Source: an uncultured Pseudomonadota bacterium (GTDB lineage Bacteria > Myxococcota_A > Polyangia > Fen-1088). From it: a stretch of DNA of 64,000 nucleotides. Of the stretch, positions 19,283-28,344 are shown piece by piece. Both the position numbers and the translations under genes were made by a program. The stretch lies in contig CAWKBC010000030.1 in the NCBI GenBank assembly GCA_963847705.1, forward strand, positions 192,001-256,000, read 5' to 3'. A model generated the notes under the pieces. That model saw only the letters and a list, made by a program, of their open reading frames with translations. It was not told the DNA's origin and ran no database searches. The first letter of the stretch is position 1. Every line of letters starts with the position of its first letter.

Positions 19283-20391
19283 CTACCGATAGGCGACCAG
19301 GCGCGCGACGAACAGCAGGCCGCCGCCGATGGCGATGGCGAGGCTCAGCGCCTTGACGCCGCGGTCGCCGAACCACGCTGCGTTGCGGGCGACGAGCACC
19401 AGCGGGAGCGCGATCGAGAGGACGGCGAGCTGGCCGAGCTCGACGCCCAGATTGAAGGAGACCAGGGCGATCGGCACCTGCGCGCGCGGCAGCGCGATCT
19501 CGCGCAGCGCGCCGGCGAAGCCGAAACCGTGGATGAGGCCGAAGGGGAAGGTGATCCGCCAGCGCTTGCTGGCGTCGGTGACGAAGAGGTTCTCGATGCC
19601 GACGTAGGCGATGGAGAGGGCGATCGCCGGCTCGACCAGGCGGGGGCTGGGGGCGAAGATCGAGAACGCGGCGAGTGCCAGGGTGATCGAGTGCGCCAGC
19701 GTGAAGGCGCTCACCACGCCCACCAGCGAGCGCAGGCTGCCGCCCACCAGGATGAGGCCCAGCAAGAAGACCAGGTGATCCGCCCCGGTGAGGATGTGCT
19801 CGATGCCGAGCTTCAGCATCGACCAGGCCATGCCGAGCCCGCTCGACGTCGAGCCCCCCCGCCGAGATCCCAGGTGGCGTGCGTCCGATCGAGGACCTTG
19901 ACCTGCGCCTTGCCGGCGCGGAAGAGGCGCGCCATGTGGCGATGCCCGGGCGCCAGCGCCTCGAGCATCGGCATCGCCAGCGTGAGCCGACCGGGAGCCT
20001 GGGGGCAGACGTAGCGGACCTGGAAGACCACGCCCCCTTCACCCTCGAGCGCCCACGCGCGGTCCAGCGTTCCGGGGCAGGCCTTGCCGTCGCCCTGCAC
20101 CGTCAGGCCCGCGGTGAACGCGCGCGCGACCGCCTGGTGGCCGGCGGTCAGCTCGTCGGTGCTGATCGCGCCGTCGTGATCGGTGTCGATCGCCGGCAGC
20201 AGGCGGGCCAGCTCCCGACCGGCCATCCCGAGATCGCCGTAGACCGTCGTGCCGACCAGGCGGTACTCGCCGCTGGAGACACCGACCGCGTGGGCGAGCG
20301 CGCGGCGCTCGGGCGCGAACACCGCCAGGGCGATCGCGGCCGCCAGCAGGATCCCGGCGCCGCGGAGCGCTCTGCCTCTGAGCCTCGTCAT
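19283..20391 (-). pseudogene. HupE/UreJ family protein (periplasmic N-domain + His-containing membrane domain), frameshifted at a G7 tract
   Basis: ORF 19813-20391 (signal ending ALA-H, GHRH) and ORF 19283-19831 (GIEHILTGADH, FTLAHSITL, FGLIHGFGF, FNLGVELGQ) join in frame if C7 at 19854-19860 were C8; may be a sequencing error. Confidence 0.8.
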
Positions 20392-20406
20392 CGCGCCGCC
20401 CCCATC

Positions 20407-21765
20407 TCAGCGCACCGGAAGCTGCGCCACGGCTGCGTTCCCCGCCGCTGCCGCTGCGGCCGTCGCCACATAGGGCGCGTCGGTCAGCGTCCCCAAGAAG
20501 GCCACGATCGCGTCGATGTCGTCGTCGTTCAGCGGCGGCGCCGCCCCCTCCCGCTGGTTGTAGATGGGCGCGTAGATGTTGACGTTGGCTCGATACTTGG
20601 GCGGCACGTCGTCGAACCTCTGCCCCGGCGGGTAGATGCGGTCCGGCGCCACCGCGCGCAAGGCGTAGAAGGCCACCACGTCGCGGAGCTTCTTGTAGGT
20701 GCCGCCGTGCCCGAAGCTCTGGCGAACCGCCACGTTGCGCAGCGACGGCGTGCGGAAGCTCGAGCACCATTTTTCGTCGTTCGAGGGCGTCGTCGCGCTC
20801 TTCCGCTCGCAGAGGCCGAGATCGAAGGACGCGGGATTCCGGTTGCTGGGCAGGTCTCGGTTGCGGGGGACGGCGACCGCGTCGTACCCATAGTCGGTGA
20901 ACATCGACTCCGCCGGATTGGTCGAGGTCTCGGCCAGGCGGTGGCAGCCGGAGCAGGCGCCGCGGCGCCGGTCCTTGAAGGCCTCGAGGCCGCGCCTCTC
21001 CTGTTCCGTCAGGGTCGCCTGGCCGCGCACGTAGGCGTCGTACTTGGAGGTGGCCGGCGTCATCTCGTCGCTGGTGAGATAGGCCGCGAGCGTCAGACCG
21101 ACGCCGCGCAGGATCGTCTGCGCGTCCGACGACGGTCCCAGCGCGGCGCGAAATTCTTTGCCGTAAGGCCCGCTGGCGATCTTGTCGGCGAGATGGCGCG
21201 GGGTCCCGGCGTTCATCTCGTTGGGGTTGAAGAGCGGCTGCCGCACCAGGTCCACCAGGCTGTCGGAGCGCCCGTCCCAGAAGAAGCCGCCGCGCGGCTC
21301 CGGCGCCGGGGCCTCGTCGTCCTCGAAGTAGTGAAACTTGGGGACGTACCTCATGTAGAGGACCGACGGCGTCGAACGTCGCGCGAATCGCCCGGGGCGG
21401 CTCCCCAGCGGCACGCCGATGCTGGAGCCGTGGCCTCCCGAAAACGCGTGCGCCGGCTCGTGGCAGCTGGCGCAGCTCGTCCCGGGCGGCTCGGAGAGGC
21501 GTTCGTCGAAGAAGATCTTCTTGCCCAGCGCCACCAGCACCGGGTTGTCGGGCGGTCCCTGGCGGGGCGGCACCGGAAGGACATTCGTACGGTGGGCCGG
21601 GATCACCTGGGCGCGGGGCAGCTTGGGGAGCTTCGCCGCCGCGAAGGCCTGGTCGATGGTCGGTTTCGGCGCGGGCGGAGGTGAGCTCCTCTCGCAGGCA
21701 CCGAGGGCCAATACGAAGGCGGCACCCGTTGCCAGATGCCGCCAGGATGCTGCCTCTCTTTTCAG
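20407..21765 (-). CDS. Diheme cytochrome c peroxidase-superfamily lipoprotein (MauG/BthA-like)
   Basis: CASCH and CSGCH, FFWDGR, PLFNPNEM, FRTPSLRNVA, VVAFY; lipobox LGAC; start uncertain (CTG 21765 gives a full signal, TTG 21711 does not). Confidence 0.88.
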   Translation of the reverse strand: MKREAASWRHLATGAAFVLALGACERSSPPPAPKPTIDQAFAAAKLPKLPRAQVIPAHRTNVLPVPPRQGPPDNPVLVALGKKIFFDERLSEPPGTSCASCHEPAHAFSGGHGSSIGVPLGSRPGRFARRSTPSVLYMRYVPKFHYFEDDEAPAPEPRGGFFWDGRSDSLVDLVRQPLFNPNEMNAGTPRHLADKIASGPYGKEFRAALGPSSDAQTILRGVGLTLAAYLTSDEMTPATSKYDAYVRGQATLTEQERRGLEAFKDRRRGACSGCHRLAETSTNPAESMFTDYGYDAVAVPRNRDLPSNRNPASFDLGLCERKSATTPSNDEKWCSSFRTPSLRNVAVRQSFGHGGTYKKLRDVVAFYALRAVAPDRIYPPGQRFDDVPPKYRANVNIYAPIYNQREGAAPPLNDDDIDAIVAFLGTLTDAPYVATAAAAAAGNAAVAQLPVR

Positions 21766-21870
21766 GTTGCCCTCTGCCGACGAGCCTCGGAGATAGCCGT
21801 TGTTAACATGTGCCGACCTGTGCCGAGGTCGAAAATCTCCCTCGGCACAGACCCGCTCACCGGTCTCCCA

Positions 21871-23988
21871 CTACGGGATGTTGTCGTAGGTCCCGACCAC
21901 GGTGCCGCCGCCGTCCGTGCAGGTGATCTGACTGCCCGGGGTGGAGTCGCAGGTGCCGCTGCAGGCGATCGGCGGCGCCATCGTGCAAACCGCGATGATC
22001 GTGCCGTTGGTGCGGTACGAGGTAAACTTCCAGTTCTTCTGGCCCACGGAGCCCACCCGGTCCATGACCATGAAGCCAAACTCCTGCGAATAGGCGAAGG
22101 CGTTGATCACGGTGTTCGGCGCCGGCAGGTCGGCGTTGGGGTTGAAGTTCGCGGGGAGCGCGGAGTCCAGGTTGTCGCCGCCGTTGCCCGCCACGAAGGT
22201 GGCCGGATGGTTGCTGGAGAAGTTGAACGCCTGGAAGTCGTGCACGTGGCCGTGCATGGCGAGCCCGATGTTCGGCGGGTAGTAGTTGTTCGGGTAGGCG
22301 GCGTTCATGACCGACTGGAGCCCCGGGCTGCCGATGGTGGGCGGGTTGGCCGCGGTGTAGCCGAGCACCGGGTGGTGAACGGTCCAGATGTTGAGCAGGC
22401 TGGCCGGCGCAAGCGCGGCCGCCTCCGCCAGCTCGGTGGTGTAGGGCTGGAACGCCGCGGGCGAGTAGGCGCTCTTCGAGACGTTCGACGAGTCGAACAC
22501 GACGAACTGGGTATCCCCGAAGGAGACGGCCCAGGGGTCGTTGAAGTTGCCGCCCGTCGGGGTGGCGTCGAAGGCCGGATTGTCGCAGGTCTTGACGTCC
22601 GTGGTGTCGAACGGATTCGGGTCGAGGTACCGGAACCAGCCCTGGCCGGCGCGGTTGCAGACCTCGTGATTGCCCCGGACCATGACCCAGGGAGCCGCCG
22701 CCAGCAGCGGCGCCGCCGGCGCGAAGAAGTCCGCCGCCCAGGCGTCGGACCCGTAGCCCCAGGGTTGCCCGGCGCAGGCGGTGTTGCCGGGGGGGCAGGG
22801 ATTGTCGCGGTACTCGTAGTCACCGACGTGAAGGACGAGATCCGGCTGCATGCTGGCGGCCAGCGTCGAGATGGTGGGGAAGGGCCACTGCGTCGGATCG
22901 CCGCAGGCCTGGTAGACGTTTCCGATCGAGATGCGGCAGCCGGTGTCGCCGAGGATCACCACCCGGTTCACGACCGGCTTCGGCAGCGGCAGCTTGATCC
23001 CCGCCGCGGTGGCCGAGACCGCCCCCGCGGGGACGGAGAACTCGCAGGTGGTCGAGGTGAAGACGGAGGGCTTCGAGTTGCCAGAGGTCATCGCGGCGGC
23101 CAGGGTCGTGTCCGTGCTGGTCGGACGAAGCGGCAGCGTGACCGGCAGCGCGCGCACGCTCATGGCGCTGGTGACGCCGTCGACGGTGATCGCGGGGCAG
23201 GTGGTGTACGGCGTGATGAGTCGGGCGAGCGCCTGGTTGTTTGCCCCGATCTCGACCCAGGAGCTCTGGACGACGGCTGAATCGGGCGGGCAGGTGACCT
23301 GGAGGCTGAAGGTGGCGTTGCACCCGGCGTCCCCGTCGGAGACCGTCAGGGTCAGCGAGGCGGTGCCCGGCGCCGTGCAGGTCAGCGTCGGGTTCTGGGC
23401 GGTGGCGCTGCTCAGCGTGCCGGAGCTCGTGGTCCAGCTGTACGTGAGCGGCTGCGGGCCGTTGTCCTGATCGTCGGCCGTGCTCGAGATCGCGACGACG
23501 TTCCCCACCGGCGGGTTCGCGCTGACGGAGTCGACCCGCGGGCAGATGTTGATCGTGCCGTTCACCAGGACGCTCCCGGTCGTCGGGGCCAGGTGGCAGT
23601 CGATCGCCACCGACACGGCGGTCGTGGCGCCGGCGGCGATGTTGAACGGCGCCGAGGTGCCCGTGCAGCTGGTTTTCCCGTCGACCGACGTTCCAGTCAG
23701 CGCCAACACATAGCCCGTGCCCACCGCGATGTTGCCGATGACCGCGGAGACCGTCGATGAGCTGGCGACGTTGATCGACCCCGAATAGGAGCTGGGGCCG
23801 CTGATCGAATAGGCGAAGGTGTTCAAGCTGCTTCCCGGCGAGAGGACCAGCGCCACGGAGCCCGCGGCGTCCGTCGACCCGCCGCCGGAGCTGGCCGTCG
23901 TCGGGGCGCCGTTGCAGCCCATCAGCGTCGAGAGCCCGACGGTCAACATGAGATTCAACGCAAGGTTCGTTCGATCGAATTTCAGCAC
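21871..23988 (-). CDS. Exported calcineurin-like metallophosphoesterase with N-terminal Ig/PKD-like domains
   Basis: Lipobox LMGC; motifs GDTG, HVGDY, RGNHE, VHHP, GHVH; GGAGG RBS before GTG. Confidence 0.88.
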   Translation of the reverse strand: MLKFDRTNLALNLMLTVGLSTLMGCNGAPTTASSGGGSTDAAGSVALVLSPGSSLNTFAYSISGPSSYSGSINVASSSTVSAVIGNIAVGTGYVLALTGTSVDGKTSCTGTSAPFNIAAGATTAVSVAIDCHLAPTTGSVLVNGTINICPRVDSVSANPPVGNVVAISSTADDQDNGPQPLTYSWTTSSGTLSSATAQNPTLTCTAPGTASLTLTVSDGDAGCNATFSLQVTCPPDSAVVQSSWVEIGANNQALARLITPYTTCPAITVDGVTSAMSVRALPVTLPLRPTSTDTTLAAAMTSGNSKPSVFTSTTCEFSVPAGAVSATAAGIKLPLPKPVVNRVVILGDTGCRISIGNVYQACGDPTQWPFPTISTLAASMQPDLVLHVGDYEYRDNPCPPGNTACAGQPWGYGSDAWAADFFAPAAPLLAAAPWVMVRGNHEVCNRAGQGWFRYLDPNPFDTTDVKTCDNPAFDATPTGGNFNDPWAVSFGDTQFVVFDSSNVSKSAYSPAAFQPYTTELAEAAALAPASLLNIWTVHHPVLGYTAANPPTIGSPGLQSVMNAAYPNNYYPPNIGLAMHGHVHDFQAFNFSSNHPATFVAGNGGDNLDSALPANFNPNADLPAPNTVINAFAYSQEFGFMVMDRVGSVGQKNWKFTSYRTNGTIIAVCTMAPPIACSGTCDSTPGSQITCTDGGGTVVGTYDNIP

Positions 23989-24292
23989 GCGCGCCTCCGA
24001 GTCCTAAGGTTCAGCCAACAGGGGACGCCGGGCTGGCATTCAGGAGTCGTGCCACACACGCGGAGCGCGGAATGCTCGCTGATCGTCGAGGTTTTTCGTC
24101 TTTGTCCTGACGTCCCCTCGACCGAACTCTCCGAAAATCGAATGGGTCATTCCGATTTTCGGTCACCACCGATCGCCTCGCTGGACACTGGAGCGACGGC
24201 CAACGCGCCGCAGTGGCCGCCGGGCTCAGAACCGGCCGTCCGACGCGCCCCCTCCCGGAAAGCTCCGGTGAGGGCGCGCCGCACGGCTCATC

Positions 24293-25971
<1,679 letters not shown>

Positions 25972-25986
25972 GACGTCGGCGACGCC

Positions 25987-26739
25987 GTGACCAGGCTGTC
26001 CGTCAACGTCAACAAGATCGCCACGCTCCGCAACACGCGCTCCAACGCGATCCCCGATTTGTCGCAGCTCGCGGCGCTGGCCCTGGCCTGCGGCGCCAAC
26101 GGCATCACGGTGCACCCCCGCCCCGACGAGAGGCACATTCGGGCGGGCGACGTCCCCGAATTGGCGGCCCTCGTCGCCCGATATCCGGGCGCAGAATTCA
26201 ACATCGAGGGAAATCCATTCCACGGCCTGGTCGAGCACTGCGCCCGGTCACGGCCGTCTCAGGCCACGCTGGTGCCCGACGCACGCGAAGCCCTCACCAG
26301 CAACCACGGGTGGAATCTGGTCGAGATGCCGCGTGCGCAGCGGACCGCGCTGGCGACCTGCATCGCGCAGCTTCGCGCCCTCGGGTGCCGGGTGAGCCTG
26401 TTCGTCGATCCCGTTCCCCAGCTGATGCCGCTGGCCAGGGAGCTGGGCGCCGACCGCGTCGAGCTCTTCACCGAGCCGTACGCCACGCTGGCGGCCGACG
26501 GTCGTGTGGAGGAGGCGCTCTCGCCCTACGTCGCCGCGGCCGCCGCGGCCCGAAACCACGGCCTGGGCGTCAACGCGGGACACGACCTCAATCTGGAAAA
26601 TCTGGGCCCGTTCCTGGATGGAGCCCGGCCGATCGATGAGGTCTCCATCGGGCACGCGCTCATCGCCGATGCGCTGGTGTTCGGCCTGGGGGACGCGGTT
26701 CGCCGGTATCTGGCGATCTGCGCGAAGCCGCGTCCCTGA
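25987..26739 (+). CDS. pdxJ: Pyridoxine 5'-phosphate synthase
   Basis: LSVNVNKIATLRN, GITVHPRPDERHI, NIEG, NAGHDL, EVSIGHALI. Confidence 0.96.
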   Translation: MTRLSVNVNKIATLRNTRSNAIPDLSQLAALALACGANGITVHPRPDERHIRAGDVPELAALVARYPGAEFNIEGNPFHGLVEHCARSRPSQATLVPDAREALTSNHGWNLVEMPRAQRTALATCIAQLRALGCRVSLFVDPVPQLMPLARELGADRVELFTEPYATLAADGRVEEALSPYVAAAAAARNHGLGVNAGHDLNLENLGPFLDGARPIDEVSIGHALIADALVFGLGDAVRRYLAICAKPRP

Positions 26740-26742
26740 CCT

Positions 26743-27189
26743 TCAGGCCGCCAGACGAACCTGTGCCGGCGAAGCGTCGGCCGTCCTGTGGGGCAGCGGC
26801 GTCCGCAGGTGCAGCATCGGCGCGAAGACGCTCCGGTAGCTCCAGGCGAGGTACAGCTCCGCCGCCAGGAGGGCGAGCGGGATCGGCAACCCGGAGGGCT
26901 CGAGGAACAGGTGGAAGCCGACGATGTTGATGATGATCGGCGCCAGGACCGCGAGCGAAAGCGGGACCAGCAGGCCGCTCAGGAGCAGCAGGCCGGCGGC
27001 GACCTCGGTCGCCTTCAAGAGCGGGAACAGGTAGCCGCTGGCGAAGAGGGCGCCCGCGAAGGCGGCGGCGCGGGGCGGTGCCGGTGGCATCGGCAGGAAG
27101 TGCAGGAAGAAGTTCAACCCGAAGACGGTGAAGACCAGGCCCAGAAACAGACGCGCGGCGGTGGGGAGGTGCTTGCTGATGGTGTGCAT
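26743..27189 (-). CDS. DoxX family membrane protein
   Basis: ARLFLGLVF, GLNFF, SGYLFP..K..E, LAPIIINI..FH; divergent from a LysR gene. Confidence 0.85.
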   Translation of the reverse strand: MHTISKHLPTAARLFLGLVFTVFGLNFFLHFLPMPPAPPRAAAFAGALFASGYLFPLLKATEVAAGLLLLSGLLVPLSLAVLAPIIINIVGFHLFLEPSGLPIPLALLAAELYLAWSYRSVFAPMLHLRTPLPHRTADASPAQVRLAA

Positions 27190-27267
27190 GGCGATGTTCC
27201 TTTCGCTGCCCAGTGTGGTCGTTTCTCGCCGGACAACTAGCCATCAGTGTGACAACATGTCGTTGCT

Positions 27268-28344
27268 ATGACAGCAACGGATGGCCTCGATCTGAACCAG
27301 GTGACGGCGTTCGTGCGGGTGATGGAGAGCGGCAGCTTCACCGCTGCGGCCCGCGAGCTGGGGCTGCCAAAGTCTTCGGTCAGCCGCCGGGTGAGCGCGC
27401 TCGGGACGGCGCTGCGGGTGCGGCTGCTCCAGCGCAGCACGCGCCAGCTGGTGCTGACGGAGGCCGGGCGCCTCTACTTCGAGCGCGCGCGGGCGGCTCT
27501 CCGTGGGCTGGCGGAGGCCAACGTCGCGGTGACCGACCTCAGCCACGAGATCGCCGGTCCGATCCGCTTCACCGCCGGCGGCGACAACACCGGCCTCATC
27601 GCCAACCTGCTCGCCGAGTTCCTCACCCGCCACCCGAAGATCCAGATCGACGTGGTGCTGACCCCGCGTCGGGTCGACCTGGTCGCGGAGGGGTTCGATC
27701 TGGCGCTGCGCGCCGGGCCGCTGGTCGATTCGGCGCTGATCGCGCGGCGCCTCGGGCGGACCGAGCTGGGGCTGTTCGCCTCGCCGGCCTACCTGCGCAA
27801 GGCGGGCCGACCCAAGACCGTCGCCGATCTGGCCAAGCACCGTTTCGTGCTCTTCGGCCCGCCGCACGAGCGCGAGCAGCTTCGCCTCACCGGTCCCGAC
27901 GGCGAGGAGAGCGTGAAGGTGCAGGGGCCCCTGGTGGTGCACGACATGTCGTTCGCGGTCGACGCGATCAGCACCGGCCTCGGCATCGGCCTGGTCCCCG
28001 ACATGTACCTCGGGTGGCTGGTCAAAGGCGGCATGCGATCGGGAGGGCGCGATCTGGTGCGCGTGCTCCCCGATCACGGCGTGGTCGGCTCGGAGCTGAG
28101 CCTGGTGTCGCCCAGCACCGCCTACGAGCCGACGCGCGTCGGCTTGCTGCGCGACTTTCTCGCCGAGCGGCTCCGCCCGATGATCCAGGCCTGCACGCTG
28201 GCGCTGGAGGCGGAGAAGGCCGCCCGGCGAAAGGCCGAAGCGCGGGCGAGCAAACAAGCGACTGAACGGGCCGCCAAACGCGGGGCGCCCAGGACCTCGC
28301 GCGCAGCCGGACCGCGACCCGCTCAGGCCTTGGCCACCACCTGA
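27268..28344 (+). CDS. LysR family regulator (CrgA-like)
   Basis: GSFTAAARELG...SVSRRV, LLQRSTR, RVDLVAEGFDLALR. Confidence 0.95.
   Translation: MTATDGLDLNQVTAFVRVMESGSFTAAARELGLPKSSVSRRVSALGTALRVRLLQRSTRQLVLTEAGRLYFERARAALRGLAEANVAVTDLSHEIAGPIRFTAGGDNTGLIANLLAEFLTRHPKIQIDVVLTPRRVDLVAEGFDLALRAGPLVDSALIARRLGRTELGLFASPAYLRKAGRPKTVADLAKHRFVLFGPPHEREQLRLTGPDGEESVKVQGPLVVHDMSFAVDAISTGLGIGLVPDMYLGWLVKGGMRSGGRDLVRVLPDHGVVGSELSLVSPSTAYEPTRVGLLRDFLAERLRPMIQACTLALEAEKAARRKAEARASKQATERAAKRGAPRTSRAAGPRPAQALATT

Follow-up and report, generated by a model that had tools for sequence, protein, structure and literature searches.

The window analyzed here is a 64,000-nucleotide stretch of contig CAWKBC010000030.1 from an uncultured Polyangia bacterium. 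On its minus strand lie three genes for exported or membrane proteins, namely, a metallophosphoesterase (below, the phosphatase), a BthA-type diheme enzyme, and a HupE/UreJ-2 membrane protein, laid out as follows.

21871..23988, minus strand: phosphatase gene (705 amino acids, PF00149), for a PhosA-type purple acid phosphatase (PAP) and predicted lipoprotein.
20407..21765, minus strand: BthA-type diheme gene (434 amino acids for the open reading frame as called, 21711-20407, with a TTG start; two CXXCH motifs; PF03150).
20391-19283, minus strand: the whole HupE/UreJ-2 gene (PF13795).
19864..20391, minus strand: N-terminal part of the HupE gene, bearing a His1 domain according to a Foldseek match of a homologue's model to Ang-1 (9GCE).
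19854..19860, no strand: seven-C run where the HupE frame shifts, recognized from the frames and homologue lengths and probably a long-read assembly error.
19283..19831, minus strand: HupE/UreJ-2 membrane domain (PF13795, E = 4e-47), a predicted metal permease with conserved membrane His residues.

The initial annotation had described three co-oriented genes, with 15 bp between the second and the third, and had read WDGR and VVAFY in the diheme protein. The minus-strand coordinates and the Pfam families bear this out, the spacing is 15 bp (20392-20406), and both motifs are present, the Tyr aligning with the BthA heme ligand Tyr463. We propose that the trio is an exported kit for phosphate release from organic phosphorus, equipped with an oxidant that is independent of the phosphatase fold; in our estimate this reading could as readily fail as hold.

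The arrangement of the trio exceeds what chance would give, because 33 of 35 near-orthologous loci (among 73 retrieved) keep all three genes in this order, in Polyangia genomes, while a tested flanking gene is shared with the window in only 5/35. The 73 genomes of the family that were also compared are kin and not independent cases, the relatives being Polyangia or Myxococcales metagenome bins. The diheme gene is found in 35 of them, the phosphatase in 33, and a strong match to the His1 domain in 28; the phosphatase adjoins the diheme gene in 31/33 and the His1 gene does so in 27/28, the exceptions lying at contig breaks. In a phylum-wide sample, 5/301 genomes matched at 1e-30, and in a class sample around a Myxococcales genome, 31/301 matched at 1e-60, many of them already in the family sample. 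The initial annotation had suggested checking for conservation across Myxococcota; the trio is conserved among the close loci but confined to one clade in one family.

By its modeled fold and its ligands, the phosphatase is a PAP, with predicted phosphomonoesterase activity. Its AlphaFold2 model (predicted local distance difference test score, 93.5) has wheat purple acid phytase (6GIT) and lupin PPD1 (3ZK4) as top Foldseek matches, and 13/13 sequence matches of the family profile in the PDB are PAPs. The PAP ligands D348, D390, Y393, N440, H538, H581, and H583 are all present. Each of the five PAP motifs with the seven ligands, including the Fe(III) Tyr, is at least 90% conserved in 113 sequences, and Y393, H538, H581, and H583 occur in 42/42 PAPs compared. 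The catalytic part is 46-48% identical to the product of the gene that immediately precedes bthA in records from Burkholderia and Cupriavidus; the identification as a PhosA orthologue thus relies on synteny, in Cupriavidus and in Burkholderia other than B. thailandensis, and not on the BTH_II1093 sequence. An N-terminal Ig/PKD-like module (approximately residues 40-235) precedes the PAP domain, and the lipobox was read by eye. In its own right, this lipoprotein module of about 200 amino acids (window 23284-23871) recurs in the genome on exported acid phosphatases, a phytase-like/lamin-tail protein, and proteins of no assigned type (G000 C30:468295, C40:165282, C27:461409, C17:25323, C47:160109, and C47:129359-131485). 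A role of the module as a docking site for the diheme enzyme was considered and rejected: Burkholderiales PhosA and several paired acid phosphatases do without it, and unpaired proteins carry it.

The diheme protein is, judged by sequence, a BthA orthologue. In the PDB comparison its closest solved relative is BthA (6NX0, E = 3.5e-112), with MauG at about 1e-38 and canonical bacterial cytochrome c peroxidases (bCcP) at 1e-18 or weaker; in a quick tree whose rows do not include the B. thailandensis protein, it groups with Burkholderia orthologues (support 99). It stays below the model cut-offs of MauG and MbnH (78 versus 444 bits and 101 versus 363 bits, respectively), and no mau or mbn operon genes were found at the locus. 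Tyr349 occupies the ligand position of the high-potential heme, where canonical bCcP has Met; it matches BthA Tyr463 and is Tyr in 31/31 trio rows. Hence, the enzyme had rightly been called Tyr-ligated: it resembles BthA, its best match, and not a Met-ligated canonical peroxidase. Counterparts of the BthA disulfide Cys415-Cys430 are present as Cys301 and Cys316, which would form the same bond, and Arg330 stands at BthA Lys444, the residue replacing Ca2+. The K444R variant of BthA is reported to behave like the wild type (PMC6405878). Trp145 lies between the hemes where BthA has Ser257, and is Trp in 49/49 myxobacterial rows; S257W BthA reportedly retained activity (PMC6405878).

The initial annotation had overlooked a change at the peroxide-binding heme. 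From the distal triad of BthA (Gln267, Pro271, and Glu277), Pro159 and Glu165 are retained and Gln is replaced by Leu155. Among 111 aligned dihemes, the distal residue is Leu in 49/49 myxobacterial BthA-clade rows and Gln in 62/62 others; canonical peroxidase variants at this Gln are inactive, according to a secondary citation (PMC10094543). Cys301, Cys316, and Tyr360 are found in 82/82 rows of the phosphatase-linked clades, versus 5-7/29 outside them. A CTG at 21765, upstream of the listed TTG start, would give the protein a lipoprotein signal. Separately, a terminator-like hairpin falls within this predicted signal region (window 21718-21743); 5 such sites occur against 2.1 expected, and it may be due to chance. 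The phosphatase and diheme genes lie in the same frame in the window, with a single TAG between them, and a read-through fusion was rejected, as only 9/26 relatives are in frame and the stop codons differ.

In the product of the third gene, the HupE/UreJ-2 part appears to be joined to an anglerase-like His1 metal-binding domain, which had gone unnoticed. The model of P0121, an intact homologue that is 78% identical across the His1 domain, shows a signal helix followed by a beta-sandwich and a membrane domain made of helices. This fold match comes from Foldseek run with the P0121 model, in which the best match of the domain is Ang-1 (9GCE; E = 1.6e-5, target template modeling score 0.64, root mean square deviation 4.8, 18% identity), a Cu-bound structure, followed by the zinc-binding proteins ZrgA/PA4063. 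By sequence, the family profile found no match to 9GCE in the PDB, and its Atlas matches are unnamed clusters; the protein is accordingly classed as anglerase-like, with no subtype assigned. A His directly follows the AxA site in 110/120 homologues (the cleavage site being judged by pattern), GHxH is present in 112/120, and the membrane His motifs are kept in 120/120. Anglerase domains are reported to bind Cu and Ni at His1, to have little oxidase activity, and to be proposed feeders of metal to permeases; Ang-2 anglerases frequently adjoin metallophosphatases (PMC12537917). The modeled architecture is consistent with the metal-supply role that had been ascribed to this gene, whereas Ni and Co as its metals are too narrow a choice, Cu and Ni being bound by the closest domain of solved structure. 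The His1 domain may conceivably be a source of H2O2 for the diheme enzyme; solved anglerases are described as weak oxidases (PMC12537917). Two further HupE/UreJ-2 genes occur in the genome (L008:4380-5564 and L009); one has the His after AxA with a different N-terminal sequence, and the other adjoins a gene with a peptidyl-prolyl isomerase domain.

In the window, a one-base shift at the seven-C run, also absent from the initial annotation, splits the HupE gene into frames of 192 and 182 amino acids that are fused in relatives. At this site, contigs from 2/4 sequencing runs of related organisms, which do not include the source reads (best share, 0.16), have one extra base; 118/120 HupE homologues exceed 330 amino acids; and 5/121 orthologous genes of the assembly are frameshifted as background, 3 of them at G/C runs. 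We infer that the frameshift is likely an assembly error, and the same observations disfavor a programmed or genuine split. They also bear on whether the HupE/anglerase gene is an unrelated passenger fixed once beside the pair, or a true pseudogene in this strain. Its association did arise once on the tree (a single change), it is missing in the Burkholderiales pairs, and it is frameshifted here. On the other hand, it is kept beside the diheme gene in 27/28 genomes that have it, while the flanks vary, and it is intact in nearly all homologues, in an assembly that carries background frameshifts. We regard a passenger or a pseudogene as improbable.

Partner phosphatases change along the diheme tree, which was computed by a quick method and comprises 94 rows (5 duplicates and 1 partial row, 6 in all, having been dropped and the trio clade thinned from 31 to 13). 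The neighbors in the BthA clade (38 rows; Shimodaira-Hasegawa-like approximate likelihood ratio test support, 99) are a PAP in 25 rows, a PF04185 protein in 6, an unnamed alkaline-phosphatase-superfamily protein in 6, and none in 1; that is, 37/38 rows have a phosphatase neighbor, drawn from three families. In the sister clade, labeled BthB-like as a name of our own that is not based on a comparison with BthB, 19/27 rows lie beside PF04185 and 6 of the 8 blanks have short flanks only. Outside both clades, a phosphatase neighbor is present in 1/29 rows. The partners span three families and two unrelated folds, the enzymes are 52-60% identical to that of the window, and PAP-paired and alkaline phosphatase-paired rows are sisters. 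The pairs occur in tandem, divergent, and convergent layouts, and all 4 such dihemes in the source genome adjoin an exported phosphatase-family gene. PhosA, in turn, often occurs alone: its homologues are present in 35/401 Burkholderiales genomes, with an adjacent diheme gene (within 1.5 kb) in 4/30 loci retrieved and none adjacent in 26/30, and a BthA-like diheme is unmatched at 1e-25 in 24/35 of the PhosA-bearing genomes, whose completeness is not given.

Some observations on these neighborhoods stand on their own. The unnamed exported alkaline-phosphatase-superfamily protein (L001:5714-8914 on G000:C27) has a weak PF01663 match and mostly hypothetical Atlas clusters, and its gene is divergent to a second BthA-clade diheme in six tree rows (L001, L042, L046, L055, L100, and L101). 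Four small Burkholderiales genomes have PhosA homologues (L139, L140, L141, and L144) in frames of 724-752 amino acids, with a C-terminal extension of about 300 amino acids and no CXXCH. L103 (G361:C848) has three PF03150 dihemes in less than 10 kb, and a single PF04185 gene is flanked by two of them. Another diheme gene of the source genome (L002:6325-7600, G000:C47), downstream of a PF04185 gene, is frameshifted as well.

This exchange of partners bears first on a MauG/MbnH-like maturation, in which the diheme enzyme would oxidize one particular residue, in either the phosphatase or the His1 domain, to yield a protein-derived cofactor or cross-link. The pair and the idea of a modification are already in print, the oxidation of the phosphatase by BthA having been proposed in PMC6405878 (Rizzolo 2019). 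In this branch of the superfamily, all dihemes whose function is known (MauG and MbnH) modify a neighbor, the linkage between phosphatase and diheme is tight, and the inter-heme Trp is retained. Moreover, Flavobacterium PhoX is inactive when expressed without its MauG-like neighbor, for which maturation is one of two explanations offered (PMC8812569, PMC8115612). Within the PAPs, Tyr569 and Asn606 mark the diheme-paired members (Tyr569 in 15/15 paired versus 2/27 unpaired; Asn606 in 14/15 versus 0/27), but this bias may reflect shared ancestry, and the metal ligands and most Trp/Cys residues, including those invariant in paired PAPs, are kept equally in unpaired ones. In the diheme alignment, the position of the MauG surface relay has no Trp. 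Since partner families are swapped within one enzyme clade and PhosA is often without a diheme, a residue-specific maturation of PhosA is unlikely, and we give maturation of this kind little credence overall. The earlier suggestion that the diheme enzyme modifies the phosphoesterase is weakened as well. For the same reason, the swapping of partners among families, it is more likely that the operon serves phosphate scavenging and that its oxidant acts regardless of the partner fold.

Indifference to the partner fold would equally suit a local removal of peroxide, the diheme enzyme merely keeping H2O2 low around exported phosphatases that contain iron while the cell is starved of phosphate. BthA is reported to turn over H2O2 with an artificial donor (PMC6405878), and, according to a review, several bacteria induce catalase in a Pho-dependent manner. 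However, a 2025 paper describes BthA-type enzymes as poor dye-linked peroxidases, and the distal Gln, inactivating when varied in canonical bCcP, is the very residue replaced by Leu throughout the myxobacterial BthA clade (49/49 rows). The conserved trio includes no gene for an electron-donor cytochrome, and a general scavenger needs no constant phosphatase adjacency in tandem, divergent, and convergent layouts. Peroxide removal as the sole function is in our opinion unlikely. We likewise doubt strongly that the enzyme oxidizes a small molecule in parallel to the phosphatase, such as a phosphorus compound (reduced, or of the C-P/S-P type) or else a phosphate-locking phenolic or metal chelate. 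The fold independence of the phosphatase association and the pho-box-like repeat described below would fit, and the more hydrophobic distal pocket with Leu155 could admit an organic substrate, but no substrate transporter or pathway gene is conserved nearby, and no result suggests a substrate.

Upstream sequences of the operon suggest a link to phosphate starvation in many relatives. A pho-box-like direct repeat with an 11-bp period, located 75-125 bases upstream, is exact in 13/28 relatives; in a shuffle control, 1/580 reaches 11 of 12. Pho boxes are defined as 11-nucleotide repeats in a review. In the source genome, the exact repeat precedes 5/4206 crudely called genes, including pstC and a PhoB-like regulator (best model PhoB, below the cut-off). 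Five relatives contain 28 exact matches, versus 4 for the reversed control; 7 of the 28 precede phoB-like, pstS, or pstC genes (pstC and phoB-like genes being assigned by eye) and 2 precede the trio operon. The repeat was also considered as a general mark of diheme-phosphatase pairs, and this was rejected given its absence from most pairs and its lack of enrichment in Burkholderiales. A scan for sigma-70 promoters in the window found none, and the upstream region has two other features.

24039..24054, minus strand: predicted sigma-54-like -24/-12 element with a degenerate -12, from a pattern match.
24133..24160, no strand: inverted repeat, a candidate site for an enhancer-binding protein, located some 105 bp further upstream than the sigma-54-like element.

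The predicted sigma-54-like element is matched in the window and in 4/28 relatives, and the inverted repeat, with relaxed mismatches, in the window and 6/28 relatives, plus one chance-like match; the latter occupies the place where other relatives carry the pho-box-like repeat. In Flavobacterium, phosphate depletion is reported to induce a MauG-like gene together with phoX (PMC8812569, PMC8115612). A 2026 Burkholderia proteome reports AcpA and a calcineurin-like phosphoesterase, which may or may not be PhosA, as increased under phosphate limitation, and mentions no peroxidase in the accessible main text. Several additional loci share these motifs. A Rhizobium acid phosphatase gene and a divergent diheme gene have a common exact match to the repeat (L087:5784-5979). 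Two uncharacterized genes, one for a soluble and one for a membrane protein, recur behind the repeat and are candidate new members of the Pho regulon (L178, L180, L182, and G000:C34:284052; L185 and G000:C11:16556-17422). The same inverted repeat lies upstream of a gene for a 726-amino-acid exported protein with no Pfam match (G000:C47:128921, L007), the start of which, read by eye, is like that of a phosphate-binding protein. The small contigs G000:C36 and C37 carry two near-duplicate pst/phoU loci, consistent with the 6% contamination of the bin.

In the favored reading of the trio as a phosphate-release kit, the phosphatase would use an Fe(III)-Tyr/M(II) center, for which the fold and the ligands provide the basis, to hydrolyze phosphate esters. 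The His1 domain would capture a divalent metal, and the membrane domain would move it to serve this center. In the least certain step, the diheme enzyme may react with H2O2 to form a long-lived bis-Fe(IV) oxidant and pass it on, via the disulfide/Tyr surface close to the six-coordinate heme, to a target for which the phosphatase fold is immaterial. The most plausible single target is the redox state of the metal, Fe(II) being oxidized to Fe(III) for the ferric site of the phosphatase, although we hold this assignment to be tentative and doubtful. Judging from the motif, a PhoB-type regulator would turn the operon on under phosphate starvation in many relatives, while the source genome seems to use a sigma-54-type promoter instead.

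Several points weigh against this reading. The change of Gln to Leu could abolish peroxide chemistry altogether, and in many genomes PhosA-family enzymes evidently acquire their iron with no BthA present. Neither the Burkholderiales pairs nor the more distant Polyangia pairs have the HupE gene, which is therefore an add-on to the phosphatase-diheme pair. PAPs that use Cu or Ni are not known. These are the metals that solved anglerases favor (PMC12537917). As for phosphate control, the repeat pattern was derived from the same upstream regions as the first count, so that the independent check is provided by the other genes. The window upstream region itself lacks the pho-box repeat (9 of 12), which, with crude start calls, was not found at most other diheme-phosphatase pairs either; the Burkholderiales phosA homologues show no excess of it (2/34 versus 80/1700 shuffles). 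Furthermore, B. thailandensis bthA/phosA are reported as anaerobiosis-induced (PMC6405878).

BthA forms an unusually stable bis-Fe(IV) oxidant, and its activity is still called cryptic in the 2025 paper; the locus points to phosphate starvation as a condition, and a testable setting, for probing its role. Partnering with three families makes a need common to all of them, be it a metal state or a substrate, a more promising focus than the modification of a specific residue. The myxobacterial enzymes are natural Gln-to-Leu and Ser-to-Trp variants for mechanistic comparison, and an anglerase-like protein is placed beside a defined metalloenzyme, its possible client. More broadly, we speculate, with considerable reserve, that BthA/BthB-type dihemes are dedicated, widely transferred oxidative helpers of exported phosphatases of at least three families, at work when bacteria scavenge phosphate, and that the myxobacterial Leu form with its His1 partner performs an undescribed heme chemistry, either the loading or redox setting of a metal center or the oxidation of organophosphorus compounds. 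If true, a heme oxidant would be an overlooked component of organic phosphorus mobilization by soil bacteria.

The upstream neighbors in the window (24610-28344), which encode argininosuccinate synthase, PdxJ, a DoxX protein, and a LysR regulator, are outside the conserved unit. A literature search that included few subscription papers did not find the myxobacterial form, the Leu variant, the anglerase partner, the swapping of partners, or the pho-box link. A survey of MbnH neighborhoods reportedly treats gene neighborhoods of the superfamily and may already mention phosphatase neighbors.

Compared with known systems, the phosphatase has the fold, the N-terminal beta domain, and the seven metal ligands of plant high-molecular-weight PAPs (6GIT and 3ZK4), from which it differs by its low identity (13-16%) and as a predicted bacterial lipoprotein. 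Flavobacterium phoX and its MauG-like neighbor fjoh_2477 resemble the trio in that a PF03150 gene is located in an exported-phosphatase operon, but PhoX belongs to a fourth phosphatase family (PMC8812569, PMC8115612). MauG of Paracoccus denitrificans and MbnH share the PF03150 superfamily, the Tyr ligand, and the inter-heme Trp with the window enzyme, which is far below their model cut-offs, has no mau or mbn genes beside it, and lacks the Ca ligands and the surface-relay Trp. The third gene is reminiscent of Ang-1 and Ang-2 fused to HupE/UreJ-2 (PMC12537917; 9GCE), with a common order of signal peptide, His1, linker, and HupE/UreJ-2 domain, and, in its homologue, a beta-sandwich with a helical insert after strand 2. 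It differs from these anglerases by its 18% identity to Ang-1, an EF-hand-like loop, GHxH, and its occurrence in Myxococcota rather than in Pseudomonadota or Actinomycetota, as well as by its diheme neighbor, none being named for anglerases in the accessible part of that paper (PMC12537917). Finally, the trio is closest to BthA/PhosA of B. thailandensis (BTH_II1092/BTH_II1093), in which bthA lies downstream of the putative purple acid phosphatase gene phosA, BthA may oxidize PhosA, and the enzyme class is called obligately Burkholderia (PMC6405878). The order of phosphatase and then diheme is the same, and both dihemes have a Tyr/His six-coordinate heme, the distal Glu and Pro, the cysteines of a surface disulfide, and a basic residue replacing Ca. 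BthA has Ser where the window enzyme has the inter-heme Trp, and Gln267 where it has the distal Leu. The window trio is further set apart by its Myxococcota host, the Ig/PKD module of the phosphatase, the anglerase-HupE gene, and, in relatives, the pho-box-like repeat.

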